This document shows, one piece after another, positions 853 to 56,144 of a DNA stretch of 59,168 bases. The notes under the pieces were generated by a model. That model was not told the origin of the DNA. It searched no databases and saw only the letters and a program-made list of their open reading frames with translations. Made by a program: the position numbers and the translations under genes. Location of the stretch: positions 1-59,168 of the IMG/VR virus record IMGVR_UViG_3300048837_000773. One strand, given 5' to 3'. Source of the stretch: a virus. Lineage: Duplodnaviria; Caudoviricetes. Each line of letters starts with the position of its first letter. The stretch's first letter is position 1.

Positions 853-872
853 CCGATAACATACATTATCGG
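853..872. repeat. dif/Xer-like site 1
   Basis: ccgataa-cataca-ttatcgg(ttct). Confidence 0.8.
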
Positions 873-874
873 TT

Positions 875-1435
875 CTAATTCCCAAAACTTACTATCCCTT
901 GGCAAGTTACCACACCATAAGATGCTGAAGACTCTCCATTTTTCCACTGCTCACCGTTTACCAATATGACACACTCCACTCTTCCTGTTTCCCCCTGATT
1001 CTGAGCAACAAGTGAGACAGTAGTACCATTTCCTACAACCATAGTTTTTGACCACGGTAGTTTTGCCTCCAATTGGTCTATTCCCCCATCCTCATTTATG
1101 TAGGTTATCAGAGAGGATTTTGCAGATCCAGTCACTTCGTACCTGACTGCACTATCGAATATGGTCACTGATTTTTCTGGAGTATCACCATTAGTAATGG
1201 AATTCAGTAATTCTTGTTCAATGCGATTGGTTTCTTTCTGGATGTAATTTACTCCCAAGATAACAGCAAGTAGAACAGCAGCTCCGAACAATAGCGCTAC
1301 TACTGCGCGAGCATTGCTTGAATTTTGCTGCGGCGAGTTAGGATCCTTTTTTAATGTCTCCAACTCGCGGTTACAAAAACGACACATGATTGCTTCGTTC
1401 TGGATTTCTTCAGCACAGTATGGGCACTTTTTCAT
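875..1435 (-). CDS. Zinc-ribbon membrane protein with MmpS-like C-terminal beta domain
   Basis: N-terminal CPYC..CRFC, one TM helix, C-terminal VRYEVTG...LPWSKT...C...C pattern. Confidence 0.7.
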
Positions 1436-1444
1436 CTGTCCTCC

Positions 1445-1723
1445 CTATTTGAGCAGCCGATATGTGATTAATGGGGCAACGGAGTAAACCGTGATTGCAA
1501 CACAGAGGGATGCTATCCAAAGGATAGGGACCATAATGGGTGGAACTGTTTGTGCAGGCGGCATCATCACGAGATTTACCAGCGTGATAATCGCATGAAG
1601 GAGTGCAAGTCTGAAGATAACCGGTAGACGTTGGAATTTATTTTTAAAAAAAAGAAACCGAAGGAAGTGAATTGCCAGGTTACGGCGTACCCGGCCCAGG
1701 ACGTTCCACGCGTCGGGAAGCAA
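1445..1723 (-). CDS. Small membrane protein
   Basis: Hydrophobic 92-aa ORF between repressor and zinc-ribbon gene; start uncertain. Confidence 0.4.
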   Translation of the reverse strand: MLPDAWNVLGRVRRNLAIHFLRFLFFKNKFQRLPVIFRLALLHAIITLVNLVMMPPAQTVPPIMVPILWIASLCVAITVYSVAPLITYRLLK

Positions 1724-2078
1724 TTTTCTTATCTCCTTCTCCAGCTAAAAAGCGTATGAAATCAATAGCCTGCTGACGTTTATCTTCAGGAAGTTGGGAC
1801 AATAAATATTCGGCTTCAGCAGTAAGGGGGTCATCATCAGGTAAATGAGGGAGAAGCCCAGCAGACCGAAAAACAATCTCGGGACGTATTTTTAGAGCCT
1901 TAGCAATTGCATTGCAAACGTCAGGGCCTGGCTTGCGTTCTCCTGACATGATTTTGGATATGGCGCCAGAAGAAATACCCCCACGGCGAGTGAGTTCTAT
2001 TTGAGCCCACCCGCGAGCGTCCAATTCAAACTGAAGCCATTCCGCGAAATCTGTCATATGACAGAATAATGTTATCAT
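1680..2078 (-). CDS. XRE-family HTH prophage repressor (CI-like, no peptidase domain); probable start 2057
   Basis: RGWAQIELTRRGGISSGAISKIMSGERKPG HTH_3 signature; divergent from a small DNA-binding gene. Confidence 0.85.
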   Translation of the reverse strand: MITLFCHMTDFAEWLQFELDARGWAQIELTRRGGISSGAISKIMSGERKPGPDVCNAIAKALKIRPEIVFRSAGLLPHLPDDDPLTAEAEYLLSQLPEDKRQQAIDFIRFLAGEGDKKIASRRVERPGPGTP

Positions 2079-2114
2079 GTGATATATTTCCTATGGGACG
2101 AATAATATTGACTA

Positions 2115-2145
2115 TTGACAGATAATAGCGCCCGTGCTATTATCT
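2115..2145 (+). promoter_or_regulatory. Sigma70-type rightward promoter overlapped by a palindromic operator
   Basis: TTGACA (2115-2120)-17 bp-TATTAT (2138-2143); inverted repeat agataatagc-N6-gctattatct at 2120-2145. Confidence 0.75.
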
Positions 2146-2180
2146 TCCTTGAGGAAGATTTTTTCATCCAAGAGGAAAAC

Positions 2181-2372: not shown

Positions 2373-2457
2373 CACGCACCACCAAGGGGTGTGCTTAACG
2401 TTCGTTTTTTCCGGTAATACCTGGGTGGGAATGGCATCAGTTTAGGGGAATGGAACA

Positions 2458-3522
2458 GTGATGGATAAAAAGACCGAAATCGTTCCGTTGTTTGGCGAGG
2501 TGGTGGTTGCCACGGCAAGGCCAGAGCCTGGTCCGCGTGAGACGGACCGGATGTCGGCGTGGGCGGAAGCCTTCGAGCTGTGGATGGGCAGCCTGAAAAC
2601 GGAAAACACCCGGCGGGCATACCGCAAGGCGTGGGACGATTTCCTTTCTTTCACGGGGAAGAATCCGTGGGTGGTGGGAAAAACGGACGTGGCGCGGTGG
2701 GTGGAAGATATGCGGATGCGGGGTTTGAGTGCGTGCACGATCCAGCAGCGGATCGCGGCGGTGAGCTCCTTTTTCCGCTACACCAACGATGAGCACACGG
2801 TGATCAGCCCGGACGGGCGGGAAGTGTCGCTGCACTCGATCAACCCGGCGGCGGGGAAGAGCCTGCGGCCGAAAGTGGTGCCGTACGGTAAGGCGATCCA
2901 CCTTTCCGCCGAGGAAGCGCGGGCGCTGCTCAAGGCAATCAAGCGGAATACGCTGCAAGGGCTGCGGGATTACGCGTTGATTTTGGCTTACCTGTTTACG
3001 GGTCGGCGGAACAGCGAAGTGCGGGTGCTGCGCTGGGGTGACTTTGAGGTGAGTGCGGGGCGGGCCTGGTACCGGTGGAGTGGGAAGCATCACGAGAATG
3101 AGCGCTTTGAGCTTCCGGCGCCGGTGTGGGAGGCGATCCGGGCGTACCTGAAAGCGGCCGGGCGGTTGGAAGCGATGCAGGATGGCGACCCAATCTTCAC
3201 GGCGCTTTCGAACCGCGCGACGCGGCTGCCGAACGTGAACGCGCTGGCATTCCTGCCGACACGCCAACCGCTCTCGATGCGCGAGGTTGGACGGCTGCTG
3301 AAGGTGTACGCGAAGCGGGCGGGGTTGGACCCTAAAAAGGTGCACGTGCATACGCTGCGACATACGGCGGCGATGCTGCGAAAAGAAGCGGGTGATGACG
3401 TGCAGAAGATTAGCGCGTTTCTGGGTCACAGCTCGCTCGCGATTACCCAGATCTACCTTCATAAAGTGGAAGGCCAGAAGGATGAGAGCTGGGCGAAAGT
3501 GGAGAGTTTGTTGGGCCTGTAA
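2458..3522 (+). CDS. XerC/XerD-like tyrosine recombinase (second recombinase, not at att)
   Basis: N-terminal SAM-like domain (NTRRAY), RDYALI..TGRRNSE (R), HTLRH, LGHSS, TQIY catalytic residues all present. Confidence 0.9.
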   Translation: MMDKKTEIVPLFGEVVVATARPEPGPRETDRMSAWAEAFELWMGSLKTENTRRAYRKAWDDFLSFTGKNPWVVGKTDVARWVEDMRMRGLSACTIQQRIAAVSSFFRYTNDEHTVISPDGREVSLHSINPAAGKSLRPKVVPYGKAIHLSAEEARALLKAIKRNTLQGLRDYALILAYLFTGRRNSEVRVLRWGDFEVSAGRAWYRWSGKHHENERFELPAPVWEAIRAYLKAAGRLEAMQDGDPIFTALSNRATRLPNVNALAFLPTRQPLSMREVGRLLKVYAKRAGLDPKKVHVHTLRHTAAMLRKEAGDDVQKISAFLGHSSLAITQIYLHKVEGQKDESWAKVESLLGL

Positions 3523-3552: not shown

Positions 3553-4062
3553 TTGAGGTGGGATATGGATCTGATGAAAGTACGGAACGAGTTATTGCCT
3601 CTCCAGCCCAGGGAGGCAGCCAGCATGCTACAAGCCCTTCCGGTGCATACGCTCCAGGGGCTGCAGGATCACGCAATGCTGGTAACGGCGCTGGGCTTGC
3701 GGCTGCGGATTCGCGAAACGCTGGCGATGACGGTGGATGAAGCAGAAGGGTTATCGGAAGCGTTGGTACAAGCGCTGACCCAGACGTACTATGCCGCGAT
3801 GAAACAGCGGTACTGCGTTCTTGGTTGGGATAATGCCTTCCCGGCCCTCCACATTCGTGAACGCGGGCAGGTGACTGCCCGATCTAACAGGAGTTTTGTT
3901 CTGACGTTGAAACTGGCGGCCGACGGCGCGGGGATCGACCCGGACCGGATCGATCAGGGAACCTGGCGGCAACTGGCATACCAGATTCACAGCAGGCCTG
4001 GCGGTTTCGCGGCATTCGTTTCTACGTTCGCACCATTTGCGACGCCGGGAAACCAGTACTGA
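3553..4062 (+). CDS. Truncated, catalytically dead paralog of the recombinase catalytic domain
   Basis: TLQGLQDHAML aligns with TLQGLRDYALI, and AGIDPDRI with AGLDPKKV; HxxR, LGH and Tyr motifs absent. Confidence 0.6.
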   Translation: MRWDMDLMKVRNELLPLQPREAASMLQALPVHTLQGLQDHAMLVTALGLRLRIRETLAMTVDEAEGLSEALVQALTQTYYAAMKQRYCVLGWDNAFPALHIRERGQVTARSNRSFVLTLKLAADGAGIDPDRIDQGTWRQLAYQIHSRPGGFAAFVSTFAPFATPGNQY

Positions 4063-4078
4063 TAACAGGCATTATCAG
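4059..4078. repeat. dif/Xer-like site 2
   Basis: ctgataa-caggca-ttatcag, overlapping the stop codon at 4060-4062. Confidence 0.75.
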
Positions 4079-4123
4079 CATACACGATCAACGATGGTCA
4101 CCATAGGAAAGGAGGAGAACGGG

Positions 4124-4552
4124 ATGATTTTTCGCAGTTGGCTATATGAGCCTACGACCTGGTTGGTGCTGGCGTTTCTGCTGGTTTTTGGCATCAGCTA
4201 CAACGCACTGGTAGCGCAGCTGGAGTCGATGCGGCATGACCGGGGGTATACGGCTTTTTTGGTCGTGGGTGGTTGTTTGGTCACACTGGCAGGGGGCAGC
4301 ATGCTGGCCGGTTTCGAGATGGGGGCATGGTTTACAGCCTGTTTCGCAGCCAGCGGTCTGCCGATGGTGATCGGCAGTTGGGCAAGGAATTCGCGGGCGC
4401 GGGTGGCCGAGGAGAAAAAGGTCGCCGATCTGGCGAAGGAGATGCTTAATGACGCCGAGGAAACCGAAAGGGTATGCGATCAATGCGGAGATTGCCCGCG
4501 CAATCAATGCGAATGGGGCGGCCAGGAGAGCGCTGCTGCGCATCCTAGATGA
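4124..4552 (+). CDS. Membrane protein (about 3 TM)
   Basis: ggagga RBS; hydrophobic segments. Confidence 0.6.
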   Translation: MIFRSWLYEPTTWLVLAFLLVFGISYNALVAQLESMRHDRGYTAFLVVGGCLVTLAGGSMLAGFEMGAWFTACFAASGLPMVIGSWARNSRARVAEEKKVADLAKEMLNDAEETERVCDQCGDCPRNQCEWGGQESAAAHPR

Positions 4553-4760: not shown

Positions 4761-4829
4761 GGGCGAGTAGCTCAATGGTAGAGCGCGGTACCCACCACCG
4801 AAATGCAGGTTCGATCCCTGCCTCGTCCA
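4761..4829 (+). tRNA. Degenerate tRNA or tRNA-like RNA with a shortened anticodon arm (nominal anticodon CCA)
   Basis: Acceptor GGGCGAG/CTCGTCC, D-arm GCTC-AATGGTA-GAGC, T-arm GCAGG-TTCGATC-CCTGC; anticodon stem only 4 bp and loop ACCCACC lacks U33 and purine 37. Confidence 0.65.
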
Positions 4830-7879: not shown

Positions 7880-7899
7880 CTGATAAGGCTTCTTATCGG
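7880..7899. repeat. dif/Xer-like site 3
   Basis: ctgataa-ggcttc-ttatcgg(aact), intergenic. Confidence 0.8.
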
Positions 7900-10767: not shown

Positions 10768-13700
10768 ATGAGCATTGTTGATGAGGTAAAAGCACGGCTG
10801 GATATCCTTGATGAGGTGTCTGCAAGCGTGAAATTGAAGCGGGCCGGGAAAAATCACACTGGCATGTGCCCGTTTCACGATAACAAGCGCACGCCGTCGT
10901 TTGTGGTTTTTCCGGGCACCGGTACATGGCGGTGTTTTGGGAGCTGCAACACAGGTGGAGACATTATTAGTTTTGTGATGAAACGGGACGGGTGCGACTT
11001 CCAGGAGGCGCTGCGGAAACTGGCGGGTAAGGCGGGTGTGGAGATGCGGCCGATGAGCCCGGAAGAGCAGCGCAAGATCGCAGTGCGGCGCGAACGGGAA
11101 GAGATATTGGCCGTCATTGCAGAGTTCTTCCGCCGGCAAATGGGAGCGCCGGCAATGCTGCCAGTGCGGGCGGAAGATTTCAATGAGGGTTTGAAGTACG
11201 CGGTATACGAGCGCAAATGGGAAACCGAAACGATCCGCAACGCAAACCTGGGGTATTTTGGTCGTGACTGGGATGGCATTCGCCACGCGCTGGTTCTGGC
11301 AGAGATTGACCCGGAGTCGCCGGCGGCTGTGGCGTTTGTGGGATACCGGGGCGACGTGGCTGCCTGGGGGATGAAGTGGGGGGTCAAACCGGCTCCCGGA
11401 TGGGTGGAAGATAAGAAGATCCCGGCGATGCCGCCGAATATGTTGATGTACGTGCACCTGCACAGGGGCCGGTGCGTTTACATCAGCGGGCGCAAGCTGG
11501 AGACAGAGGACGGACACGCGAAGAGCTGGAACCCACCCAGCGAGCTGGTTGGTGAGCGGCAGGCGTACTTCAATCACATCTGGAGCGGGGAGAAAGACCC
11601 AAAGCACCTGGTGATTGTGGAGGGACAGGGAGACGCGGTAACACTGGCGCAATGGGGCATCCTGGCTGTTGCGCTGGCCGGGTCGGGAAATTTGCGGCCA
11701 GAAACCTTAACAAATGGTGAGGAAGAAGTTAGAACCGATAATGTTTTATTATCGGAACTGAAACGAAAGATCAAAAATGAATCATCGCGGGCGAAAGCAT
11801 CTACGCGGATCGTCGTGGCGCTGGACCAGGATGAGCCAGGGAAAAAGCTCCAGGCAAGCGTTATCGAGGCGCTCTGCAGCGCCGGAATCGGGCCAACGCA
11901 GATCGCTATGTTGGAATGGCCGGAAAAAGATGCAAATGCCTGGCTGCAGGCAGGGGGGACGGCCAAGGCCGCGGCCGACGCGCTGGCCAGCGCGGAAAGC
12001 CTGCTGGAGGCGCTTATTTTGAGCGCGGAACCGATTGGCGGGAAAAGCGACGATGAAGCGGTGCAGAAATTGTTCGCGGAGCTGGCGAAGCTGAACCCAT
12101 TCGAGATCGAGAAGGTGCGCGAGGTGGTGTGCGAGCGGTTAAATCTGCGCCGGCGGGTTTTTGACGGTTTGCTGAAAGCGGCGCGCCGGGATGCAGGAAA
12201 AGGCGACGATGGCCAACCGGCATATTTTGTGGAGGGTGGCCGAGTCTTCGCGCGCTCTTTCGACGCACGCGGAGGGGAGACCGTCGAGGCGCTGTGCAAT
12301 TTTTCTGCCTTCATCCAAGGCGACGTGCTGCGGGATAACGGGCAAGACGTGATTCGCGAGTTCCATATTCGCGGGGCGATCGGGAAGCATAACCTGCCTA
12401 CGGCGCGGGTCAAGGCAGAAGATTTTGCAAAGATGGAATGGCCTATCTCGGCCTGGGGGAGCCGGGCGATCATCGAGGCTGGCGCGCGCCGGCGGGATCA
12501 GCTTCGCGCAGCTATCCAACACTTGAGCAAGGAGGTAAAGCGGATGACGATCTATACACATACCGGATGGAGAGAGGTGGAGAACGGCAACGGGGCAAAG
12601 CGCATCTATCTGACGGCCGCGGGCGCCGTGGGTGGGGAAGCGGTGGACGTGGAACTGGACCGGGATTTGGATTTGTACCAGGTGCCGACGGTTGCCCAGA
12701 ACCCGGGCGAAGCTATGGCGCTGAGCCTGTCTTACCTGGATATCGCGCCTGACCGGATTGCGTTCCCGATCTGGGCAGGGATGTACCTGGCGCCACTGCG
12801 GGACCTGGTCAACGTGGCGTTTTCGCTGTGGATCTACGGCGCCAGTGGGACGATGAAGAGCACGTACGCGGCGCTGGGGCTGAATCACTACGGGCCGGGT
12901 TTCGACGATAAGCACCTGCCGGCCAATTTTACGGATACGGCGAACCGGCTGGAGCAAAAAAGCTTTGTGATCAAAGACGCGCCGCTGTTGATCGACGATT
13001 TTGCGCCACAGAAAGATCAGCGGTCCTATACGGAGTATACCCGGACGGCGCACCGGATCGTGCGCGCCGCGGGCAACCTGGCCGGTCGCGGCCGGTTGAC
13101 GGCCGACGCCAGTGCTCGCACAACGTATGACCCGCGCAGCCTGGTGATCATCACCGGCGAGGATTTGCCGGAAAGCGAAAGCCTGGTGGCCCGGCTGTAC
13201 GTGGTGGAGGTAAACCGGGGCGATGTGGATAAGGTCAAGTTGAGCTCCCTGCAGGGCAAGCGCGACCGGCTTTGCCACGCTATGAGCGGGTACCTGACCT
13301 GGGCCAGCGAGAGCTGGCCAGGATGGGTGGAAACAATACCAAAGGCATGGAGGGAGTATCGGCAGCGCGCTTTCGAGGCCGGGTATCACCTGCGGCTGCC
13401 GGAGGCGGTGGCAGGGCTCATGATCGGGTCGGAGATGGGGCTGCGATACGCCAGCGCACTGGGTGTGATTAGTTCTGTGGAGTATGCGCGGTACATGGAC
13501 CGCGCTTGGGCAGCGCTGCAGGATGGGGCATCGGCGATGAGCAACCGGGTGAAGGAAGAAAAACCGGAGGCGCTGTTCCTGCGAACGCTGAGCGATTTGA
13601 TCACGCAGGGGAAGATCACATTCAAGGGCACGAACGGGCTGACCAACCTGGGTGGGGATCCCACTCCATTGGCGGAGATGCTGGGCTGGTACGACCACGA

Positions 13701-13946: not shown

Positions 13947-14804
13947 ATGGGTACGCGGTTTTTTATCGATAGCAGCGAGGAGAAGCTGGACCAGGTGATT
14001 CGCGCTGTGCAGGCGGTTAACGATCTGCAGGGGAAGCGGGTGATCGAGTCGCAGCGGTTGGTATGCCTGGAAGTCGAGCGGGAAGATATTGCCCAGGCGC
14101 TGGAGACCCTGCTGGACTGCAGCGGCGTGCGGCACGTGCGGGCAACACCGGTGACGGCTGGCAAAGCCCAGCCTGAAGCGCAACAGGAAATGGCGGATCA
14201 GGAAGATCCGGCGGATCAGGAAGATCCGGCGGCGGCAGAGGAACCGATCATCATCGAGGAGGAACCGTTGACAAAGACTGTTTTGGACGTTTGTGAGATT
14301 TGTGGAGAGGCGCCGGTTTCGCGGCCAGGGGCAAAGATTTGCACATCGGTGAAGTGCCGGAAGGAACATAAACGGCTGTACATGAAGGAGTATTTCAACC
14401 GGAAGCGGCGTCAGGAAGCAGAACCTGGCTTATCGGACGAGGAACGCGAATTCGAGGCGCTGCTGGAGGCCGAAACGCTGGCCGAGCAGGTGCAGGAGGA
14501 GAAGGATCCGAAAAGTGAAGACCCGGAGGGCGAGGCGTTTGAAGACCTGATCGAAGAAGCGCCAGAGGATGATGAGTACACGCTGGCAGCGAACGGGGAG
14601 CGATTTAGCCGGGACGCGCTGATGATGGTGCTGCAACAGCGCCAGCTCCTTCCGGGTACGCTGCTGCGCAAGGGGAACCGGTTCTACACCGTCAATGGGT
14701 GCTATGAGCTGCGCCGGAAGTCGGTTTCGGTCAAAATTGCCAACGCTTTCCGCGATCGGGATGCTTACCGGAATAACTGGCAAAGCGGTAGTCAGAACCG
14801 ATAA
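13947..14804 (+). CDS. Acidic hypothetical protein with a zinc-finger-like segment
   Basis: CEIC...CTSVKC; E/D-rich. Confidence 0.65.
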   Translation: MGTRFFIDSSEEKLDQVIRAVQAVNDLQGKRVIESQRLVCLEVEREDIAQALETLLDCSGVRHVRATPVTAGKAQPEAQQEMADQEDPADQEDPAAAEEPIIIEEEPLTKTVLDVCEICGEAPVSRPGAKICTSVKCRKEHKRLYMKEYFNRKRRQEAEPGLSDEEREFEALLEAETLAEQVQEEKDPKSEDPEGEAFEDLIEEAPEDDEYTLAANGERFSRDALMMVLQQRQLLPGTLLRKGNRFYTVNGCYELRRKSVSVKIANAFRDRDAYRNNWQSGSQNR

Positions 14805-14817
14805 GCCAGGTTATCGG
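14798..14817. repeat. dif/Xer-like site 5
   Basis: (agaa)ccgataa-gccagg-ttatcgg; overlaps a stop codon and directly precedes ATG 14818. Confidence 0.85.
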
Positions 14818-18880: not shown

Positions 18881-19288
18881 ATGTGCGAATGCGGATGTGG
18901 CGATTTTCGACCGTACAAGTCTTTCCTGGTGGGCGACCTGGTGCTTTCCGTGGAGGTGTATCCGGGCTGCCAGGAATGTGGTACCGGGATTATGGTGGCC
19001 TTGAACATTTTTACGATGGAAGAAGCTGCTCGGTGGATTGAGGACATCGAAGCGCTGCCGCAGCTTCAGCCAGTGAAGGGCGATTATGGATGGAAGCGGG
19101 AGGATGTCCCGCTGATTGGCGAAGAAGACATTGTGGAATGGGCAGAAAAGCAGCGCGTGCTTCTTGGCGAGGAGGGGTCGTATTCCACGTTGGAAGATTA
19201 TTTAGCCGATAACGGGCTGGACCTGCTCCAGGGTGGGTTGGAGATCCGGCTAAAGAAGAACCGGGATGCGGAAAATAAGAACCGGTAA
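18881..19288 (+). CDS. Hypothetical protein (Cys-rich N-terminus)
   Basis: MCECGC..CQEC; gaggt RBS. Confidence 0.6.
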   Translation: MCECGCGDFRPYKSFLVGDLVLSVEVYPGCQECGTGIMVALNIFTMEEAARWIEDIEALPQLQPVKGDYGWKREDVPLIGEEDIVEWAEKQRVLLGEEGSYSTLEDYLADNGLDLLQGGLEIRLKKNRDAENKNR

Positions 19289-19301
19289 TGTGTCTTATCG
19301 G
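19282..19301. repeat. dif/Xer-like site 6
   Basis: (agaa)ccggtaa-tgtgtc-ttatcgg; overlaps a stop codon. Confidence 0.8.
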
Positions 19302-22656: not shown

Positions 22657-23358
22657 GTGGTAAAAGGTGGGAGGAGGGAAGGGGCAGGCCGACCGACCCT
22701 TGACGTAGAACGTCTGTATGTTACTCTGAGGCGGCCTCAGATCGAATGGCTGAAAGGCAAAGGGAACGCTTCAGAGGTTTTGCGGTCCCTGGTGGACCGC
22801 GCAATCGAGGAGGAGGGATCCGTGCACCTTTACGAAGTTGGCAAACCGTACACCGACCGAAAGCATTGGCCCGAACTGGCGCAGTATAACTACCGGTCCG
22901 GCGAACACGAGCTAATTCTGTTTTTCGACCGGCCCAGCTCCAAGGAGGTCCAGGCGGTGCGAAAAGATCCGTTTGAGCTGGCACTCTACACAGCAGGTAT
23001 GCAGATTGTGCTGCTTTATCGATTTGGCCAGGTAATCCCCTGGAGCGATGCGCCATACAGCATCCACCTTGTTCCACCCGAGCAGCGCACGCTGCCGTTG
23101 CCGACCGGGTCAGAAGAGCAGGCCTGGCTGCACGTGGTTCTGGTGGACGCGTCCAATGGTATTGTGCGTGCACTGCGCTCGCTAACAATGTCCGCGGAAT
23201 TCACCCAGGCGCTGCACCAGTCGATCCGCGCGCAGGCGGATATGCCGTTTACGCGCGCCAACTACAACGGCGAGCTGGAAGCGCTGTTCGCGGAGAACTC
23301 ATCTGCGGACCTGGCCAGTATGGCGCAGATCCGGTACACGAGTAATCAGGACCGATAA
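22657..23358 (+). CDS. Hypothetical protein with N-terminal GGxRxGAGR and RHH-like DNA-binding segment
   Basis: GGRREGAGRP..LYVTL..NASEVLRSLVD. Confidence 0.65.
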   Translation: MVKGGRREGAGRPTLDVERLYVTLRRPQIEWLKGKGNASEVLRSLVDRAIEEEGSVHLYEVGKPYTDRKHWPELAQYNYRSGEHELILFFDRPSSKEVQAVRKDPFELALYTAGMQIVLLYRFGQVIPWSDAPYSIHLVPPEQRTLPLPTGSEEQAWLHVVLVDASNGIVRALRSLTMSAEFTQALHQSIRAQADMPFTRANYNGELEALFAENSSADLASMAQIRYTSNQDR

Positions 23359-23371
23359 GAGCAATTATGAG
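23352..23371. repeat. dif/Xer-like site 7
   Basis: ccgataa-gagcaa-ttatgag; spans stop 23356-58 and ATG 23367. Confidence 0.65.
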
Positions 23372-28394: not shown

Positions 28395-28414
28395 CCGATA
28401 AGGGGGATTATCTG
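28395..28414. repeat. dif/Xer-like site 8
   Basis: ccgataa-ggggga-ttatctg(ttct), intergenic. Confidence 0.75.
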
Positions 28415-29498: not shown

Positions 29499-30110
29499 GT
29501 GATCATGGCGCAGCAGGATGATGAAAACACCGCGTTCCCGGCTTCGGCCGCGACGCCCGGCCAGGCAGACAGCCGGCGGGCGCGCCATGCGTTTTTACAG
29601 AATGCGAAGGACTGCCCGTGGCTGCAGGATTATCTGCAGCTGCGGCTGGAGGGTTGGGACTGGCGCAAGGCGGCCTACATTGCCTGGAAAGCCTCGCCGC
29701 TGGATGGGCGCGCGCCGAAGACACAGCAGGAGCTGGCTACGGATGTGCTTGGACTGCGGTCGGACCGGGCGATTCGGAATTGGATCGAGAAGGATCCGGC
29801 AATCGAAGAACGGGTGGCGCGGCTGCAGATCGAGCCGTTATTCCAGCACCGGCGGGATGTGATCAATACCTTGATCGAGTCGGCGAAAGCAGCCGGGCGC
29901 GAGGGAGCGGCTGACCGGAAACTATATTTCACCCTGACGGGAGACCTGAAAACCGGGAAGGGCGAGGGCGAAACCACTCCAGGCCGGCAAGCGCCTGGTT
30001 CTTCTCCGTTCGAGGGAGTGAGCGACGATGAGCTGGAGCGGATTATCCGAAACCTCCAGGCTGCTGTTGGCGACGCAGGCGCAGAGCCAGAATCCGAAGA
30101 ATCGGACTGA
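29499..30110 (+). CDS. Terminase small subunit
   Basis: KTQQELA..LGL..RAIRNW HTH; immediately upstream of the large subunit. Confidence 0.7.
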   Translation: MIMAQQDDENTAFPASAATPGQADSRRARHAFLQNAKDCPWLQDYLQLRLEGWDWRKAAYIAWKASPLDGRAPKTQQELATDVLGLRSDRAIRNWIEKDPAIEERVARLQIEPLFQHRRDVINTLIESAKAAGREGAADRKLYFTLTGDLKTGKGEGETTPGRQAPGSSPFEGVSDDELERIIRNLQAAVGDAGAEPESEESD

Positions 30111-31959: not shown

Positions 31960-31979
31960 CTGATAATCGAGCTTATCGG
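31960..31979. repeat. dif/Xer-like site 9
   Basis: ctgataa-tcgagc-ttatcgg, between terminase and portal. Confidence 0.8.
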
Positions 31980-36181: not shown

Positions 36182-36465
36182 AACCAACGTATGAGTATAA
36201 GGGATGGGAGGGAAGCGTGAAGCATATACCGCATAACAATCACCACAAGCCAGGAACGTGGAAGGGGCTGATGGTGCCAATCGATGAAATAGGGAAACGC
36301 TATCGAAAGAGCGCAAGTATGACGTGCCCGGAGTGTGGTCAGATCAGCTCACTATCGGGGCACGATATTGCCGACGATGGGATAGTTTCTCCGAGCGTGG
36401 TTTGCCCATACGAGTTGTGCCATTTCCATGAATTCATCAAACTGGAGGGGTGGGACCCTGTCTGA
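36178..36465 (+). CDS. Small Cys/His hypothetical protein
   Basis: CPECG..H..SPSVVC..CHFH. Confidence 0.55.
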   Translation: MKPTYEYKGWEGSVKHIPHNNHHKPGTWKGLMVPIDEIGKRYRKSASMTCPECGQISSLSGHDIADDGIVSPSVVCPYELCHFHEFIKLEGWDPV

Positions 36466-36481
36466 TAAGTGTTCTTATCGG
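36462..36481. repeat. dif/Xer-like site 10
   Basis: ctgataa-gtgttc-ttatcgg(agct); overlaps a stop codon. Confidence 0.8.
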
Positions 36482-38472: not shown

Positions 38473-38492
38473 CCGGTAATCGACGTTACCGG
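38473..38492. repeat. dif/Xer-like site 11
   Basis: (gaa)ccggtaa-tcgacg-ttaccgg, right after a stop codon. Confidence 0.75.
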
Positions 38493-40547: not shown

Positions 40548-40911
40548 GCGTAACCCGAACGCACGCGTAGATGCAGAACAGGTAAGAGATATTATCAGCA
40601 CTGGCCTGACGGATGGGCAGGTGAACGCGATGATCAACACCGCGCACCTGGTCATCGAAGAACGGCTGGGGGATAAGCGTCTGAGCGCGAGCCTGCTCGG
40701 GCAAATCGAGCTGTGGCTGGCTGCGCATTACGTGTGCATGCGGGATCCGCGTAAAAAACAGGTGAAGGTCGACGATACGTCCGTCACATACCAGGGCGAA
40801 ACCGGGATGGGGCTTAAAGCGACAAGCTACGGCCAGCAGGCTATGGACCTGGATCCTACCGGAACGCTGGCCAGCACCAGCATGAAGCGGGCGTCGCTAC
40901 GGGCGGAGTAA
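40540..40911 (+). CDS. Head-tail adaptor (DUF4054-like)
   Basis: IELWLAAH, GLKATSYGQ..LD. Confidence 0.7.
   Translation: MAERNPNARVDAEQVRDIISTGLTDGQVNAMINTAHLVIEERLGDKRLSASLLGQIELWLAAHYVCMRDPRKKQVKVDDTSVTYQGETGMGLKATSYGQQAMDLDPTGTLASTSMKRASLRAE
40579..40598. repeat. dif/Xer-like site 12 (near the 5' end of the adaptor gene)
   Basis: (agaa)caggtaa-gagata-ttatcag. Confidence 0.6.
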
Positions 40912-43400: not shown

Positions 43401-43420
43401 CTGATAAGAACTGTTAGCGG
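43401..43420. repeat. dif/Xer-like site 13
   Basis: ctgataa-gaactg-ttagcgg, intergenic. Confidence 0.75.
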
Positions 43421-46468: not shown

Positions 46469-47805
46469 TGGCGTACCAACTGCGGCTTACAGACGGCACG
46501 AATACGCTGTTTACCTTTTCGGATGGGGTGAACTGCATCATCCAGGCGGGGATGGGCGAGTCGCCGGCGCTGCCCACGGAAGACGTGGCGTGGGTGGAGG
46601 AGGTGGTGCCGATCCTGTTGATGGGCGGGCTGACCACGATCCAGAACAATATGCGAACGATCAACCGGACGCTGGCGGATGCACGCTATAAAGAGACGGC
46701 GCGCGCCGGCGGGCATATCTACCTGGAGAAGAGCGCAAGCGATACGGATGGATGGTGGCGGGCGAAGATCCGCGGCGGGGAGCTGAGTGGATACTCCATC
46801 GACCAGGCCATTCGAACGGGGAAGATGCTGGTCCAGCTTACGGTGGAGCGGGTGGATTACTGGGAGGGTGCGCTGACGAGTGTGACGGTATCGAACCGGC
46901 ACGGGACGAACGCGACCGGGTTGACCGTATATAACCACATGGACGGGGACGCGGACAATTACGTGCAGCTCGCAGCGAACCAGATCACCGGCGATCTGCC
47001 CACGCCGGCATTGATCGAACTGACCAACCTGTTTGCCGGAAACGTGAATTTCGTGTGGATTGGGCATAAATTTACGGGCGCACCGGCAACATTTTCGCCG
47101 GTTTACGAGGGTGAAGCAGCGATCGGTAAGAGCGGCACAACCTATACGGATGCATCGAACGGGCGGTATGAGGCGCTGCAGGCGTTCAGCGGAATAACTA
47201 CACAACTGCTTACCTGGACGCTGAGCACAGCGCAAATGGACGCGGCAGCGGGGGGATGGTTCCACGTGTTTGTGCGCCTGGCTTCTGCAAGCGCTTTTCC
47301 TCACGTAACGCGGTTCGAGCTGGCGCTGACACAGGGCGCCGGGCGCGTGTGGGCGTCGGGAACACATATGCCTGGCGACTCCTTTATGACGCTGTACGAC
47401 CTGTTCTTGATGCGCCTGCCACCATGGCTGCCAGGCGCGACCGGGAGCGGCTCGCTGACGATGGAGCTGCTGGCGCTGCAGGCGAGTGGGGCCACGGCGT
47501 ACTACAACGTGGATTACGTGTACCTGATGCCGGCAGATGGCTTCCGGCACTACCGGGTAGAGTCGTACGCGATTGGACAGAACCAGCGCCTGGTGGATAA
47601 CGGGCCAGACGATGAGGTGTACCGGGATGCCGGGAATGGGACGGGGAAGATTGGGAACGTGATTGCCGCGGGGGATCCGATTATGCTGCGGCCGGGCAAG
47701 CTGCAACGGTTGTACTTCCTGGTGCAAGACATCAACGGAAACAGCCAGGTAGCGAGAACCGCGTCCGCTAAGATCTCTTATCGGCCCAGGCGGCGGGATC
47801 TATGA
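46468..47805 (+). CDS. Distal tail-like protein
   Basis: Directly after tape measure, beta-rich. Confidence 0.55.
   Translation: MAYQLRLTDGTNTLFTFSDGVNCIIQAGMGESPALPTEDVAWVEEVVPILLMGGLTTIQNNMRTINRTLADARYKETARAGGHIYLEKSASDTDGWWRAKIRGGELSGYSIDQAIRTGKMLVQLTVERVDYWEGALTSVTVSNRHGTNATGLTVYNHMDGDADNYVQLAANQITGDLPTPALIELTNLFAGNVNFVWIGHKFTGAPATFSPVYEGEAAIGKSGTTYTDASNGRYEALQAFSGITTQLLTWTLSTAQMDAAAGGWFHVFVRLASASAFPHVTRFELALTQGAGRVWASGTHMPGDSFMTLYDLFLMRLPPWLPGATGSGSLTMELLALQASGATAYYNVDYVYLMPADGFRHYRVESYAIGQNQRLVDNGPDDEVYRDAGNGTGKIGNVIAAGDPIMLRPGKLQRLYFLVQDINGNSQVARTASAKISYRPRRRDL
47765..47784. repeat. dif/Xer-like site 14 (3' end of the distal tail gene)
   Basis: ccgctaa-gatctc-ttatcgg. Confidence 0.75.
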
Positions 47806-51005: not shown

Positions 51006-51206
51006 ATGAGCGAGAACATCACACAGGCCAGGGACCGGTACATCCAGCAGCGCGAGCAGGCGCTGGCGCGACAGCACGAGCTGGAGAAGGAGCTGGTGCG
51101 GGTGCAACAGCTCACCATCGCGTTGAGCGGGGCCATCGAAGCCCTGGACGCGCTGCTGCAGGAAGGGCGGGTGCAGCAGGAAAACAGAACCGATAAGACA
51201 AGTTAG
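51006..51206 (+). CDS. Small coiled-coil protein
   Basis: ggagg RBS. Confidence 0.6.
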   Translation: MSENITQARDRYIQQREQALARQHELEKELVRVQQLTIALSGAIEALDALLQEGRVQQENRTDKTS

Positions 51207-51209
51207 CGG
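51190..51209. repeat. dif/Xer-like site 15
   Basis: (agaa)ccgataa-gacaag-ttagcgg; overlaps a stop codon. Confidence 0.8.
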
Positions 51210-51220: not shown

Positions 51221-52948
51221 ATGGCTGGATTTGGCGAGAAGGCGATTTTTGTTTGGAACAATGAGAAGATCAACAAAAACGCGGCGGTGGTCACATCGCT
51301 GTTGGCAAATGCTGGCTTCGAGGCAGCGCACCTGCACGCGGTTAATGTATGGACCTGGAAGACGGCTTCGCGCCTGGCGCTGGTCCAGACACTGCGTGCG
51401 GCCGGAATCCAGGCGTATGGATCGGCGGGTGTATATGGATATAAGCCAGAGGAGGAGGGGCGCCTGGCGGGGGAGCTGGTACGCGATTTGGGCCTGGCCG
51501 GGTTTATCTTCGACGCCGAAGGTATCTTCGACGCTCAACCTACGGCCGCGGCGAACGCGATCACGATGCTCAGGGCATACAAGCAGGTGACAAGCCAGCC
51601 GGCCGCCTGGTGCTGGTGGCCGTTCTACAAAAACCCGTACCCGCCTTTTCAATCGTACCATCCGGTAGAAGTACTCAAGGCCGCGATGCGGATCGCGGAC
51701 GTGGGTATGCCAATGGCGTACTGGTCGTGGGGGGATACGGCGCCGGACGCGGTGCGCTACCTGAATGCTGTGTGGCCACAGTGGAGGGCGGTTACGAATA
51801 AGCCGCTGGTGATCGCCGGGCGGGCGTGCGTTGGCGACGGCGGGACCGCGCGGCCGGCGGCGATGCTGGCGTTTGAGGCGCGGGCGCGCGAACTGGGCGC
51901 AATCGGGATGACCTGGTGGTCGATGGAGCACGCGCTCGACAAGGTGAATCTGCCTGGCGTATGGGAAGCGCTTGGCCAGACAATGCAAATGGGAAAAGGC
52001 GGAGGAGGTGTACCGGTGGTGGAGAATCACTACAAAAAAACGGCAATGGGGCTGATTACAAAGAAGCCCGGGTGGACAAATAAAGAATTTGCGTTCATCG
52101 TTGGGGAAGCGGGGGAATCGTGGTACAAGCCTAACCCGGATCTGAAGGCAATCGAGGAGCAGGCAGCGGCAGAGGGGAAACCGTTCCTGGCGCTGTACCG
52201 TTTCAGTGTCGATTTCTACATCCGGCAGCAGTACCCGATGGACGTGGATCTGTGGCCTACCCTGGCGCAGGATGAGCCATACCAGATGTGCATCCGCGCG
52301 ATCGGAAACCGGAACGTGAAGGCGGTGATCGTCGAGGTGACAAACGAGAAGAATCACGATGGCAAGGAGCAAGACAAGGACTGGATCTCGTTTGCATCGA
52401 AGATCTTCCTCGGGCGTGTGGGGGATTGGCTGGCGCGGAATAAGCCCGGTGTGCCATTGCTGCTGGCCAGCTCGAACGAGTTTATCCAGAGTAAGGCGCC
52501 GAATATGAACATCTGGGCGCATACCTACGCGAGCTGCATCACGCAGCCGGCGCAATTGGCGCTGCTGGATGAGAGCTTCCCGGGCAGAACCGATAAGCCA
52601 AATTATCTGGGGAACTCGGATGGGTGGAAGTTTTGGGCGCATTACACCTTCAAAAGTAACGGGGACCGCCTGGCGATCTTCAACGGGGACCGGGCAGCGC
52701 TGGAGCGCTGGCTGAAGGTGGAAAACGGACAGGAGCCTGAGAAGCCGGGAGAACCGGAGAAGCCGCCTGTACCAACGCCGGATCCAGAGCTTGAAAAAGC
52801 GGTGAAGGCGTTGACGGATAGAACCGCGGCGCTGGGACAGGAAATCCAGGCGTTGAATGGAAAGATCGAGGGAATCGGGCAACGGCTGGCGGCGCTGGAA
52901 TCGCGCTACCAGGCGCATACACACAAGATTACGGTCGAAAAGCCGTAA
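51221..52948 (+). CDS. Putative endolysin with two glycoside-hydrolase-like TIM-barrel domains
   Basis: GFIFDAE and MPMAYW in domain 1; GH25-like WKFWAHY..FNGDRAAL in domain 2; Pro-rich linker and coiled-coil tail. Confidence 0.55.
   Translation: MAGFGEKAIFVWNNEKINKNAAVVTSLLANAGFEAAHLHAVNVWTWKTASRLALVQTLRAAGIQAYGSAGVYGYKPEEEGRLAGELVRDLGLAGFIFDAEGIFDAQPTAAANAITMLRAYKQVTSQPAAWCWWPFYKNPYPPFQSYHPVEVLKAAMRIADVGMPMAYWSWGDTAPDAVRYLNAVWPQWRAVTNKPLVIAGRACVGDGGTARPAAMLAFEARARELGAIGMTWWSMEHALDKVNLPGVWEALGQTMQMGKGGGGVPVVENHYKKTAMGLITKKPGWTNKEFAFIVGEAGESWYKPNPDLKAIEEQAAAEGKPFLALYRFSVDFYIRQQYPMDVDLWPTLAQDEPYQMCIRAIGNRNVKAVIVEVTNEKNHDGKEQDKDWISFASKIFLGRVGDWLARNKPGVPLLLASSNEFIQSKAPNMNIWAHTYASCITQPAQLALLDESFPGRTDKPNYLGNSDGWKFWAHYTFKSNGDRLAIFNGDRAALERWLKVENGQEPEKPGEPEKPPVPTPDPELEKAVKALTDRTAALGQEIQALNGKIEGIGQRLAALESRYQAHTHKITVEKP
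52590..52609. repeat. dif/Xer-like site 16 (inside the lysin gene)
   Basis: (agaa)ccgataa-gccaaa-ttatctg. Confidence 0.7.
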
Positions 52949-52957
52949 AGGGAGGGG

Positions 52958-53512: not shown

Positions 53513-53569
53513 AGACAATCGGGAGCGGGGGCCGGGATCGGCCTCCGCTCCACCAAACAAGGATGGGCT

Positions 53570-55834
53570 ATGGCAAACCGCGCGGCAGAGATTAGAGCAA
53601 CAGTGCAGAGCCAGTCCCCCGGCGCCGTGGTGACCGCACGGGGACGTAACTGGATTGAGCACGCGCTGGTCGATGGTCGGCGCGTGCTCGACGCCGGCCT
53701 CGGGCCGCTCCACGTTGCCGGGACTGAGACAGAGATCGATACGGCCTGGCGGGCCACAACCGGCGCGTGGCAGTACCAGATGGTGCTGGCCGACTACAAC
53801 GCCTACGCCCGTAGCCAGCTAAATGCGGGTGACACGGTACAGTACCGCGACCCAGGGAGCGGCGAGACCGTCACATTCCAACCATTGGCGCTAAATTGGG
53901 TCAACGAGGTTGGTTCGCGGCAGCAGATCACGCAACCGCAGAGCGTGATGGCGACGGTTGCCGATGACGTGCTGCGGTGGCAAAACGGGTATGGCGCTGG
54001 ACGGCATTTTCGGTGGCAGGCGCAAAGTGCGCGGCTGCAGAAGCTATTGACGATCGACAGCGCGGCCAACTTGCCTGCTCCAGCAGCATGGCTAACGGGG
54101 ACGAGGTGGCTGGAGCTTGAATTTATCGTTAAATTTTCGGCAGGGATTGATCCCTGGCTGGATGGGGTTAAATGGTCGCGCGGCACGACGCCAGTACGGA
54201 CGGCCAACCGTGTCGAGTTCCGCTCCATTGCCAGCGGAGCCGCGCTGTGGCACCTGGACTACCCGCGCGCCTGGGACAGCGCGGGGAATGAGGTTGTTGG
54301 GCAGTACGAGTTACGCAGGCAGTCGAGCAGTTACTACATCACCGTGCGCGTGCCGCAGGCATGGCTGCAGTCGGCTGTGTACCCTGTGTACATCGACCCG
54401 ACGATTGAGGTGTCGGTGAGTGCGGGCAGCAACGACGGCCATTGGTGGGAGGGCACCACCGATTTTGATGCTGACTCCTCATATATGCTCGTCGGCAACG
54501 GGAACCAATGGGGGCGGGGGGCGATGAACGGCTTTGCACGCTTTGTAGGGTTGGCTGGCCTGCAAGGCATGACCGTGGACAGCGCTTACCTGCGTTACAC
54601 GGCTAATGAGTCGTTTAGCACAGCGACCTGTCGTATTCGGATACGGGCTGTGGCGGCGGATAATCCCGCTGCGCCAACCAGCTACGCTCAGGCCGAGGGC
54701 GCAACGCGCACCACGGCCTACGTGGACTGGTCGGTGCCTGCGGACGTCAACAACGTCGCAAAAAACAGCCCAGACATTGCCGCTGTGGTGCAGGAGGTGG
54801 TCAACCGCTCGGGATTCGGCGGCGCACTCATCGTCTACCTCGAAGATAACGCTTCTGACAACAACGCCAGGAGGTACGTTGGCCCGTACGACTGGTCGGC
54901 TACCAATGCGCCGTTGCTGCACATAGAGTACTCGGAGGGATTGCCAGAGGGGATTAGCGCATCAGTCACACAAATGGTCCCGACCTTTTCCATGAGCAGC
55001 ACGGGACGCGTGGGCGCTAGAGGATCTGTGGCTTCTATAATCCGTAGACCGGGCGCTTCCAGCGCCGCAGCGCCTCGGGTAACTGGGTTTGCTCAGGGAA
55101 CAATGCAGATCGTCGCCACCAGCAAAGCAGTCCAGGTTCGCGCAAACGGATCCCGGGCCGTGGTCCTGACTCGGCCAGCAAACACGAATATGGCGGCAAC
55201 GCGGGTTCATGTTTCTGCGGCGCCAGGATCCGTCCAGAGGATGAATACCAGCGCTGCTGCCCAGGTGGCCGCTGGCGGATCACGGACCACCGTTTTCCAA
55301 ATTCAAACCCTGGCAGGTGGAGGGGTGCAGATACGCGGGTCTGCGGAAGCGGTTTTAAGGTTCGTCCTGGCTGCGGCTGGAACGGTGGGAGAACCAGGTG
55401 AAACAATCACAGGGCAGATCCACCGAGTGCTGGAGAAACTCGATACGAGTTACCGCGTGCAATTGGGCGCGCCTGCATTGACCAATCAGGCGATTCACGC
55501 ATCCAGCAGCAGCAGGACAGCCCAGGTCAAGACGTTCGGCAGGACGACCATTGAAAGGGTTATGGCGGAGATGGAATCCACCGCATCCGCTGGCGTGCAG
55601 GTCACTGGATGGCTGGTAGAGGAGCAGGGATTTGAACGAGATCGCACGATGCAGGCGGGGGTTTCAGGGTACCTGGCCTATACGATTGCGAAATTGCTCA
55701 AGGCTGCGGTGGCGCGCGCGGGAGCGTTTGGGCCCAATGCGCAGCTCGTTTTGACTATCGTCGAGCCCGTCATGCTGGCGGTCATGGAACAACAAGAAAC
55801 GACGCTCCATTTGAGCGAAAGCGAGGGTCAATGA
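53570..55834 (+). CDS. Large virion-associated protein (DNRLRE-like domain)
   Basis: AVYPVYIDPT, TVDSAYL, PLLHIEY; Ala/Thr-rich C-terminus. Confidence 0.55.
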   Translation: MANRAAEIRATVQSQSPGAVVTARGRNWIEHALVDGRRVLDAGLGPLHVAGTETEIDTAWRATTGAWQYQMVLADYNAYARSQLNAGDTVQYRDPGSGETVTFQPLALNWVNEVGSRQQITQPQSVMATVADDVLRWQNGYGAGRHFRWQAQSARLQKLLTIDSAANLPAPAAWLTGTRWLELEFIVKFSAGIDPWLDGVKWSRGTTPVRTANRVEFRSIASGAALWHLDYPRAWDSAGNEVVGQYELRRQSSSYYITVRVPQAWLQSAVYPVYIDPTIEVSVSAGSNDGHWWEGTTDFDADSSYMLVGNGNQWGRGAMNGFARFVGLAGLQGMTVDSAYLRYTANESFSTATCRIRIRAVAADNPAAPTSYAQAEGATRTTAYVDWSVPADVNNVAKNSPDIAAVVQEVVNRSGFGGALIVYLEDNASDNNARRYVGPYDWSATNAPLLHIEYSEGLPEGISASVTQMVPTFSMSSTGRVGARGSVASIIRRPGASSAAAPRVTGFAQGTMQIVATSKAVQVRANGSRAVVLTRPANTNMAATRVHVSAAPGSVQRMNTSAAAQVAAGGSRTTVFQIQTLAGGGVQIRGSAEAVLRFVLAAAGTVGEPGETITGQIHRVLEKLDTSYRVQLGAPALTNQAIHASSSSRTAQVKTFGRTTIERVMAEMESTASAGVQVTGWLVEEQGFERDRTMQAGVSGYLAYTIAKLLKAAVARAGAFGPNAQLVLTIVEPVMLAVMEQQETTLHLSESEGQ

Positions 55835-56118
55835 AGATCAATACGTATGACGTGGGAGATAGGCCAAAAATCACGGGGCAGTTTTACCGTGAGGGAGAAC
55901 TGGTAGATCCCGACTCGGTGGCAGCTACTGTGAGAGATCCGGCCGGCATGGTCACCACGCTGGAAGTAGGCACGGGGCTGGAGCGCGTATCGGTTGGAAC
56001 GTACAGCTTCACAATCGACATCACTGCCAGCGGTACCTGGTTTTATCGGCTTGCCGGCAGTGGCGCACACCAGGCGGCAGCGGAGGGAGCTTTCCGAGTG
56101 CGGCCAAGTCGCGTTTAA
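55831..56118 (+). CDS. Small beta-rich phage protein
   Basis: ATGA overlap; LVDP..GTY..GTWFYR. Confidence 0.6.
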   Translation: MKINTYDVGDRPKITGQFYREGELVDPDSVAATVRDPAGMVTTLEVGTGLERVSVGTYSFTIDITASGTWFYRLAGSGAHQAAAEGAFRVRPSRV

Positions 56119-56124
56119 TCGCGG

Positions 56125-56144
56125 CTGATAACGGTACTTATCGG
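56125..56144. repeat. dif/Xer-like site 17
   Basis: ctgataa-cggtac-ttatcgg, intergenic. Confidence 0.8.

Follow-up and report, generated by a model that had tools for sequence, protein, structure and literature searches.

What could a phage do with a palindromic element that recurs every few kilobases along its genome? The question is raised by IMG/VR virus record IMGVR_UViG_3300048837_000773, a linear record of 59,168 bp and ~80% completeness that was analyzed at its full length (hereafter “the window”). It contains 17 copies of an inverted repeat with a variable center. A first-pass annotation, made from the letters alone, had likened these to the dif sites of Xer recombinases and assigned them to a recombinase encoded at positions 2458-3522 (the “2458 recombinase”). 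We favor, tentatively, the reading that the 17 elements are core-type sites of this Xer-like enzyme of the phage, with recombination between copies of the same site. Binding by the 2458 recombinase, any strand exchange and the purpose of the array are what we infer from sequence comparison. Comparisons were made with metagenomic contigs, many of them incomplete; handles beginning with G or L denote the genomes and loci compared.

Sequence and design of the sites

The pattern CYGRTAA-N6-TTABCDG gives 24 strand-matches in the window, corresponding to 15 distinct positions (sites 1-3, 5, 6 and 8-17 in Table 1), and gave 0 matches in 100 dinucleotide shuffles of the window. Two further sites depart from the strict pattern, one at 23352 in its right arm (TTATGAG) and one at 11735 in having a 7-nt spacer. 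All 17 sites of the first-pass annotation are thus real, whereas the weaker copies that it listed at 231, 4678 and 58898 were marginal on inspection and are not counted.

The general design is a pair of inverted arms of up to 11 bp, ending in (A/G/C)TAA, around a variable center of 6 or 7 bp. In the window the center is N6 at 16 of 17 sites and N7 at the other; elsewhere, whole lineages use N7. Conservation in the window extends over 11 bp of the left arm and 7-8 bp of the right. Both arms reach 11 bp, around a 6- or 7-bp center, in G011, G014, G015, G016 and G018. The inner edges of bacterial dif arms are ATAA and TTAT. The likeness to Xer/dif architecture that was first proposed is borne out by the arms and centers of these several lineages, which match dif as given in the part of the published description used here, namely two 11-bp arms and a 6-bp spacer (PMC2958812).

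The sites had also been called symmetric. This holds for the inverted arms but not for their surroundings, since a conserved 5′ extension, AA-n-CAGAA, precedes the left arm and has no mirrored counterpart beyond the right one. Outer-arm information in the window is 2.69 bits on the left versus 1.19 bits on the right. The extension is oriented with transcription: the lone site in a minus-strand gene block carries it on the minus strand.

Pairing between the arms was counted at 48 sites from seven genomes. Watson-Crick pairs numbered 20 at positions 2/19 (18.8 expected) and 31 at positions 4/17 (27.6 expected). The arms therefore vary independently, without pairing co-variation, which argues for half-sites in duplex DNA rather than for hairpins. 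This pattern fits a dimer that would read two independent half-sites on double-stranded DNA.

As the first-pass annotation stated, no two of the 17 spacers in the window are identical or reverse complements of each other (minimum distance 1 with both orientations considered). Their uniqueness is nevertheless nothing special, as chance alone gives distinct 6-mers. Across 12 genomes, spacers within a genome are more alike than random, with 70 pairs at most 2 nt apart (35 expected) and 10 pairs at most 1 nt apart (4.7 expected), and the centers are under no selection for distinctness. Palindromic centers number 0 of 119 (N6 and N7 together), such that each site is directional; note that a palindromic center is possible for N6 only and that we estimate about one by chance, so the zero is not significant. 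The first and last center positions are biased in a complementary way. In G028 (L185-L186), four of 11 centers end in CCCCA, giving four pairs that differ by at most 1 nt.

Sites in related genomes

Among relatives found through TerL, the pattern occurs 11 times in G001, six times in G002, five times each in G003 and G005, four times in G010 and twice in G004, with 0 matches to the reversed pattern. Four related genomes of 50-57 kb have no site. Lineages found through the helix-turn-helix (HTH) protein encoded upstream of TerL share an inner core, (G/C)(A/C)TAA, N6 or N7, TTA, while the outer arm bases are lineage-specific and reach 11 bp per arm (Table 1). The arrays of relatives contain 5-15 sites, compared with 17 per 59 kb in the window. 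Counts from a generic site detector are lower bounds, as it finds 12 of the 17 window sites and six of the 15 in G017.

Density in a host chromosome could be assessed in G011, a 4.1-Mb Anaerolineales genome. All 11 matches fall around a prophage, in a 38-kb part of a single contig, and none occurs elsewhere in the 4.1 Mb (the reversed control gave four); the motif is therefore neither a host repeat nor a host regulon. The first-pass annotation had named equal density in the host chromosome as a refuting condition, and the count thus came out in its favor. Two other genomes scanned for the pattern gave one and no matches.

Where sites are syntenic, the arms persist, even deviant ones, while the centers drift. 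Three syntenic pairs between the window and G001 differ in the center and one, at 40579, is identical. The deviant arms of the latter site recur at the syntenic place in G001 with the same spacer and in L006 and G004 with other spacers. At one syntenic site the center differs within flanks that are 92-100% identical.

Co-variation of the arms with the 2458 recombinase

The 2458 protein is Xer-like, with SAM-like N-terminal and catalytic domains and with XerA (2e-15) and XerD (1e-9) as its best PDB sequence matches. It scores 103 bits with the NCBIfam XerC/D/A models, compared with cut-offs of 220-335. The catalytic residues (R184, E187, K210, H298, R301, H324 and Y333) do not vary among eight homologues that are 35-60% identical. 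When viral contigs were searched with the single recombinase sequence nothing was found; an alignment of the eight homologues found 28 loci. The window encodes a second Xer-like recombinase (int2-type), probably the integrase. It adjoins a tRNA-Pro gene, which is the usual arrangement of integrase and attachment site, and this agrees with the earlier view of the 2458 enzyme as the extra recombinase.

Distances between outer arms were compared with distances between candidate proteins by Mantel tests, which, like the Fisher test below, ignore kinship. In nine genomes with arrays, outer-arm distance is correlated with recombinase distance (rho 0.76, P 0.0002), as against rho 0.26 (P 0.18) for the small-terminase-like (“TerS-like”) protein, which is the HTH protein upstream of TerL. 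The switch between N6 and N7 follows the same order in these nine genomes (0.47 with the recombinase versus 0.18 with the TerS-like protein), and the distances of the two proteins correlate only weakly with one another (0.35). Where all three proteins are present (six genomes), rho is 0.65 for the recombinase (P 0.019), 0.36 for int2 (P 0.094) and -0.22 for the TerS-like protein.

Genomes that encode a 2458-type recombinase and have no array provide a second line of evidence. Five of six such genomes contain one high-quality dif-like site each. Of their 36 TAA..TTA candidates, five have at least six of eight outer pairs, where chance gives 0.0042 per candidate. The reversed pattern gave one of 117 and one of 53 in control scans, and genomes without a 2458-type recombinase gave 0 of 16. 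The single site of G026 overlaps the stop codon of the recombinase gene. In five of 15 genomes the end of the recombinase gene is followed by a site within 60 bp, versus one of 10 for int2. Most array-less loci show ordinary GC-rich hairpins downstream of the recombinase gene and no dif-like sites there. Together, the arm co-variation and the single sites sustain the link between the sites and the 2458 recombinase that had first been proposed.

The recombinase gene adjoins the XRE repressor gene, on the opposite strand, in G000, G010, G011 and G014. This arrangement suggests early expression.

Several observations weigh against this assignment. The Mantel tests rest on nine and six related genomes, and genes linked to that of the recombinase would behave alike. 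The trees of the two recombinase clades are similar, leaving int2 as a candidate. Fifteen strict sites are found in G017 without a 2458-type gene on the contig (which starts 2 kb before ParA), and G002 and G003, with six and five sites, are contigs without any recombinase. Conversely, G020 has both recombinases and the TerS-like gene, yet one site. Among recombinase-positive genomes, nine of the 11 that have the TerS-like gene carry an array, compared with 0 of the seven that lack it (Fisher P 0.0011), the array status of G024, G025 and G027 being judged on loci of 15.6-21 kb only. The recombinase by itself thus does not account for the arrays, and a second factor is involved, whether packaging type, an int2 partner or simply lineage. 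The near-identical spacer pairs of G028 look risky for an array that recombines. Finally, the sites fit exactly between a stop codon and the next ribosome-binding site and point the way of transcription, as might be expected of elements that act in gene expression.

Placement and spacing

The sites are a feature of gene junctions. At 12 of the 17 in the window the stop codon of the upstream gene is part of the site or precedes it by at most 48 bp, and a thirteenth junction site (47765) is 17 nt ahead of the next start. The next start follows the site by 2-29 nt in nine cases. Three sites (11735, 40579 and 52590) fall within open reading frames (ORFs) as called, and 31960 falls within a doubtful small ORF. 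As there are 71 gene junctions, roughly one in four has a site. The sites of relatives likewise lie at gene junctions. The stretch between 853 and 4059, where the XRE gene lies and the rightward genes begin, has no site. The primase ORF that contains the site at 11735-11755 has 1053 codons, and its frame reads through the site without a stop.

The sites are spaced far more evenly than expected. The coefficient of variation of the gaps in the window is 0.28, compared with 0.92 under uniform placement and 0.86 for random gene junctions (P < 5e-5). In five genomes this coefficient is 0.28-0.40 where ~0.9 is expected (P ≤ 0.0015 each), and the gaps average 3.2-4.5 kb. G015 is a circular genome, and its widest gap, counting the one that wraps around, is 4,549 bp.

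Sequence discontinuities beside the sites

Close relatives differ by insertions or deletions next to the sites. L021 and L024 are 93-98% identical, and both of their discontinuities abut a site. In L024 one insertion (2445-2601) holds a hydrophobic 44-codon ORF 6 bp after a site and the other (8753-9050) an AT-rich ORF of ~95 codons directly before a site; both are absent from L021, and neither inserted ORF is flanked by two sites. Between L166 and G028, two of four breakpoints are within 5 bp of a site. In total, four of the six breakpoints seen in these two comparisons are no more than 6 bp from a site (P ~0.02 by a rough binomial calculation made by hand). With six events, the association is suggestive only.

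Proposed mechanism

Productive exchange by tyrosine recombinases needs matching centers. If the 2458 recombinase acts on the array, a dimer would bind each site on duplex DNA, and, because of this need, each site would recombine only with another copy of itself, so that different sites of one genome would not recombine together. The partner copy could be in a sister genome, in another unit of a concatemer or multimer, in a terminally redundant end or in a very close relative. The even spacing, one site per ~3-4.5 kb, would mean that some copy is needed every few kilobases. The most economical reason would be the joining or resolving of redundant or multimeric genome forms early in infection, and gene gain and loss beside the sites would be a by-product.

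Phage P1 offers a point of comparison. Its Cre protein is a phage tyrosine recombinase that acts at loxP, a site with inverted arms and an asymmetric center, to cyclize terminally redundant DNA and resolve dimers. P1 has one loxP, and Cre cyclizes only those molecules that have lox in both redundant ends. Hypothetically, an array would cover every permutation, unlike the single loxP. A specific form of the mechanism, which is speculative and which we think rather unlikely as it stands, would be a distributed lox-like system. The DNA would be packaged by the headful, circularly permuted and terminally redundant, with a redundancy of about the inter-site length, so that most injected molecules would carry the same site and center at both ends and the recombinase, expressed early, would cyclize them without host recombination. 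Monomers and multimers could be interconverted for packaging, and the differing centers would forbid deletion between sites. Such a system would explain the even spacing, the free asymmetric centers, the intact catalytic residues and the position of the recombinase gene. The restriction of arrays to genomes with one terminase-associated protein family would be explained as well. TerL gives no indication of the packaging mode, its closest cultured relatives being only ~26% identical. PHROG scans of 61 window proteins, many of which lack annotation, named no annealing-type general recombinase.

Alternative explanations

The most substantial alternative, raised in similar form by the first-pass annotation, is that the recombinase, or the two recombinases together, binds the sites without strand exchange and serves across the genome as a roadblock, a silencer or an architectural protein, in a manner resembling Cluster A repressors on stoperators. 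We consider this unlikely, though well worth weighing. It has a precedent in the prophage SPbeta, where, in the parts of the published account used here, MrpR (YopR) has a tyrosine-recombinase fold, binds ~10 intergenic elements (SPBRE, 15 bp) in promoter regions and maintains lysogeny (PMC10516654). The likeness lies in a recombinase-fold protein with dispersed intergenic sites in one prophage. Sites between stop codons and ribosome-binding sites in long one-way operons, with an extension that follows transcription, would also be in keeping with such a role, and even spacing would suit silencing or organizing. MrpR, however, is described in the same parts of that account as without catalytic residues and recombination activity (PMC10516654), whereas in the 2458 recombinase these residues are invariant over 35-60% identity, and the sites here are 28-29 bp with a variable center, most of them beside a stop codon and a ribosome-binding site inside operons. 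At E ≤ 0.001, a PDB sequence search with the 2458 protein did not return MrpR. Further, the recombinase gene lies opposite the XRE gene and so probably belongs to a lytic-side operon rather than being expressed in lysogeny, and the clustering of insertions and deletions at sites suggests DNA breakage and joining.

It is improbable, in our estimation, that another phage protein reads the sites, be it the TerS-like HTH protein, the int2-type integrase or an unrecognized regulator. The TerS-like protein was favored at first. In an early comparison its cluster was the sole one present in seven of seven genomes with the motif and 0 of four others, and later it was found in 13 of 14 array genomes versus one of 10 array-less ones (a copy in G004 exists but fell out of this count at the ORF filter). 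It is thus the best presence/absence marker of arrays; the Fisher test above also counts in its favor, and it has a clear HTH. Its association is inflated, since relatives were collected via TerL or via the TerS-like protein itself. Of 50 loci anchored on this protein 19 have no candidate site, its gene is present in G020 without an array, and its divergence does not track the arms. Arms of 11 bp would also be long half-sites for a single HTH. On these grounds the TerS-like protein was rejected as the reader. Whether it is a small terminase is itself tentative: the window protein has no Pfam, PHROG or NCBIfam match, Terminase_2 matches one of 18 aligned homologues (7.6e-8), and Foldseek returned 2ao9 and Sf6 gp1 weakly (E 0.27 to 7). 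For int2, the Xer-like nature of the protein and the resemblance of its tree to that of the 2458 recombinase count in favor; its lower correlation with the arms and the rarity of adjacent sites count against, as do the arrays in the G011 region and in G018, where no int2 gene is present on the available DNA. The absence of sites between 853 and 4059, the region of the XRE gene, likewise counts against another protein as the reader. A further gene considered as the reader, g15041, was rejected because the part of G001 that is covered does not contain it.

The first-pass annotation had interpreted the differing spacers as an address code, by which related phages would exchange gene modules at cognate sites. 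That this is the chief function of the array appears quite improbable. The four of six breakpoints within 6 bp of a site, and the presence of the same sites in genomes that share little else, would agree with module exchange. The support is thin, however, as six events are a small sample and gene insertions favor junctions anyway. The code itself is not borne out: spacers at syntenic sites differ between relatives, even inside nearly identical flanks, with one identical pair (40579) in the closest relative, G001. With such drift, cognate matching would be confined to near-identical genomes, and the spacers are no more distinct than chance would make them.

We regard it as very improbable that the elements act as RNA, in the form of intercistronic hairpins for processing, stability or translation control. 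They do lie at transcribed junctions just upstream of ribosome-binding sites, oriented with transcription, and 10 of the 17 fold with z ≤ -2. The other seven have z > -2, four of these z > -1, and the arms show no compensatory co-variation. A conserved stem with a free loop would be the opposite of typical hairpin recognition, and the alternative palindrome of G007 (see below) has a center of only 2 nt. The only Rfam matches in the window are two tRNAs, with no family at the sites. Both an RNA hairpin and an intrinsic terminator were therefore rejected as the principal explanation. Least probable of all are host-derived or selfish repeats (of the repetitive extragenic palindrome or miniature inverted-repeat transposable element type), host regulator sites, or parS centromeres for the ParA-like ATPase that the window encodes: the elements are indeed small palindromes in intergenic places, but there are no copies outside the prophage in G011, their arms co-vary with a phage protein, and arrays occur without a ParA homologue in G010, G014, G015, G016 and G018.

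Comparison with known systems

The resemblance to the Xer/dif systems of chromosome-dimer resolution (XerC/D, XerA, XerS, XerH) comprises inverted arms of ~11 bp, a 6- or 7-bp center, an Xer-like recombinase and an FtsK-like ATPase encoded nearby. The differences are that dif occurs once per replicon, in the terminus region, whereas there are 17 sites per 59 kb here, evenly spaced, at gene junctions and each with its own center, and that the 2458 recombinase falls far below the NCBIfam cut-offs for XerC/D/A. Integron attC sites are of variable length, and the form that recombines is a folded single strand. They share with the present sites the character of imperfect palindromes after successive co-oriented genes, an Xer-related recombinase and gene gain or loss beside sites; here, by contrast, the length is fixed, pairing co-variation is absent and inserted ORFs are not between two sites. 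The integron-integrase model gives the 2458 recombinase 54 bits, versus a cut-off of 265.

Dispersed protein-binding repeats are known in few phage groups, namely stoperators, SPBRE elements and Cluster O repeats. The stoperators of Cluster A phages, according to the portions of the two sources used, are numerous, lie in short intergenic gaps and are oriented with transcription (PMC9283540, PMC4351075); they lack symmetry, and the immunity repressor that binds them is a monomeric HTH protein (PMC9283540). The sites described here differ in being inverted repeats with a free center that co-vary with a recombinase. Only their outer extension is oriented with transcription, and they are missing around the XRE repressor gene (853-4059). 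Cluster O mycobacteriophages have more than 30 dispersed 17-bp dyad repeats, mostly off promoters, with predicted binding of a dimeric protein; as far as the sections used describe them, these have a 7-3-7 design with invariant arms, about one third are inside genes, they are unlinked to insertions or deletions, and the phages have no integrase (PMC4351075). Here the design is 11-6/7-11, the sites are at gene junctions with insertions and deletions beside them, and recombinases are encoded.

No description of such arrays was found in the literature searched, whose coverage left out most subscription journals. As far as that literature goes, none of the systems compared combines dif-like sites, an intact co-evolving recombinase, placement at gene junctions and even spacing. 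If the sites recombine, site-specific recombination would have a new role in how phages handle their genomes or become mosaic, and the array would be a natural set of mutually non-recombining lox-like sites for one enzyme, which could interest genome engineers. If they only bind protein, the phage would add an independent second example of a recombinase that serves to bind DNA genome-wide, here with the catalytic residues kept. Either way, the sites give a testable handle on an uncultured phage group, apparently of Chloroflexota.

Genome context and other observations

The window is the genome of a temperate, siphovirus-like phage with nearly all genes on the plus strand; apart from the tRNA at its right end it contains no host DNA. 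The early and replication genes encode FtsK-like and ParA-like ATPases, a primase, an exonuclease and a helicase. The late order runs from a PAPS-reductase/ParB-like pair through terminase, portal and head genes to tail genes. Features are collected in Table 1.

Table 1. Sites and genes of the window discussed in the text, and site types of related lineages
Feature	Position	Strand	Remarks
Site 1	853..872	-	CCGATAA-N6-TTATCGG; in minus-strand gene block; AGAA extension on minus strand
XRE-type repressor gene	1680..2078	-	Opposite strand to recombinase gene 2458-3522
Xer-like tyrosine recombinase (2458-type), proposed site reader	2458..3522	+	Just right of XRE repressor gene
Small gene	4037..4552	+	Next after recombinase in six genomes
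Site 2	4059..4078	+	Left arm contains stop codon of gene 3553-4062
tRNA-Trp	4761..4829	+	Early region
Site 3	7880..7899	+	48 bp past FtsK-like gene; next start 14 nt on
Site 4	11735..11755	+	N7 spacer, the only one in the window; within primase ORF 10768-13929
Site 5	14798..14817	+	End of left arm is TAA stop of upstream gene
Site 6	19282..19301	+	Left arm holds upstream stop; next start 2 nt after
Site 7	23352..23371	+	Right arm deviant (TTATGAG); upstream stop within left arm
Site 8	28395..28414	+	Precedes low-GC gap ahead of packaging genes
HTH protein, small-terminase-like (TerS-like), upstream of TerL	29499..30110	+	Goes with arrays; divergence not tracking arms
Site 9	31960..31979	+	TerL/portal junction; many relatives have a site there
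Site 10	36462..36481	+	Left arm holds upstream TGA stop
Site 11	38473..38492	+	2 bp past prohead-protease gene; next start 15 nt on
Site 12	40579..40598	+	Arms CAGGTAA/TTATCAG
Site 13	43401..43420	+	16 bp past a stop; AGGAGG and ATG directly follow
Site 14	47765..47784	+	In last 40 nt of gene 46468-47805; next start 17 nt on
Site 15	51190..51209	+	Right arm holds upstream TAG stop; AGGAGG and ATG follow
Site 16	52590..52609	+	Within ORF 51221-52948 as called
Site 17	56125..56144	+	7 bp past a stop; next start 18 nt on
Second Xer-like recombinase (int2-type), probably integrase	57913..59028	-	Adjoins tRNA-Pro
tRNA-Pro, probably attachment target	59072..59147	-	Right end of record
Site type, G014			AGGGCACATAA-N7-TTATGTGCCCT; 13 sites
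Site type, G015			CCGACTGATAA-N7; 12 sites
Site type, G016			TCTGGGGATAA-N7; 8 sites
Site type, G018 and G011			AGC(T/G)CCGCTAA-N6
Site type, L093			AGTGnnGATAA-N6

The hosts are probably uncultured bacteria of the Chloroflexi type. Named homologues of the HTH protein upstream of TerL come from metagenome-assembled genomes (MAGs) of Anaerolineales or Chloroflexi, and of its four genomic matches three are in Anaerolineae MAGs and one in a Saprospiraceae MAG. A Megablast search of cultured phages with 20 kb of the window gave no match. Nine sequencing runs from five studies contain small shares (at most 0.16) as contigs, four of these runs only as short low-depth pieces of ~160-360 bp where they match the window. 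Note that runs X1-X3 gave identical tables and look like one data set filed three times.

The pair just upstream of the packaging genes (25398-27852) consists of a PAPS-reductase/DUF3440 protein followed by a ParB-like protein, and its make-up resembles that of the co-activators IbrA and IbrB. Only G005 yielded a homologue of the first gene. At 36660-38471 a prohead-protease-like N-terminal part is fused to a region matching PHROGs annotated as RNA ligase. Positions 1-2000 have 45% G+C compared with ~59%, and carry minus-strand genes mostly without a family match. Similarly, the G011 prophage includes a 4-kb low-GC stretch (44% versus ~61%) at ~122-126 kb of contig C38. The window-type TerL was not found after the TerS-like gene of G011.

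Other palindromes recur in relatives. G007 (L066-L068) and G009 (L072-L074), TerL relatives without the motif and with different proteins upstream of TerL, carry (T)ATTTCC-N2-GGAAAT(A) in 10 and four copies respectively, at gene junctions that include the one between TerL and portal. G003 (L056-L057) has CGGCAG-N5-CTGCCG in five copies and CGCCAAC..GTTGGCG in three. Finally, GCACC abutting GGTGC occurs five times in L121, and AAGTT-N4-AACTT four times in L128.

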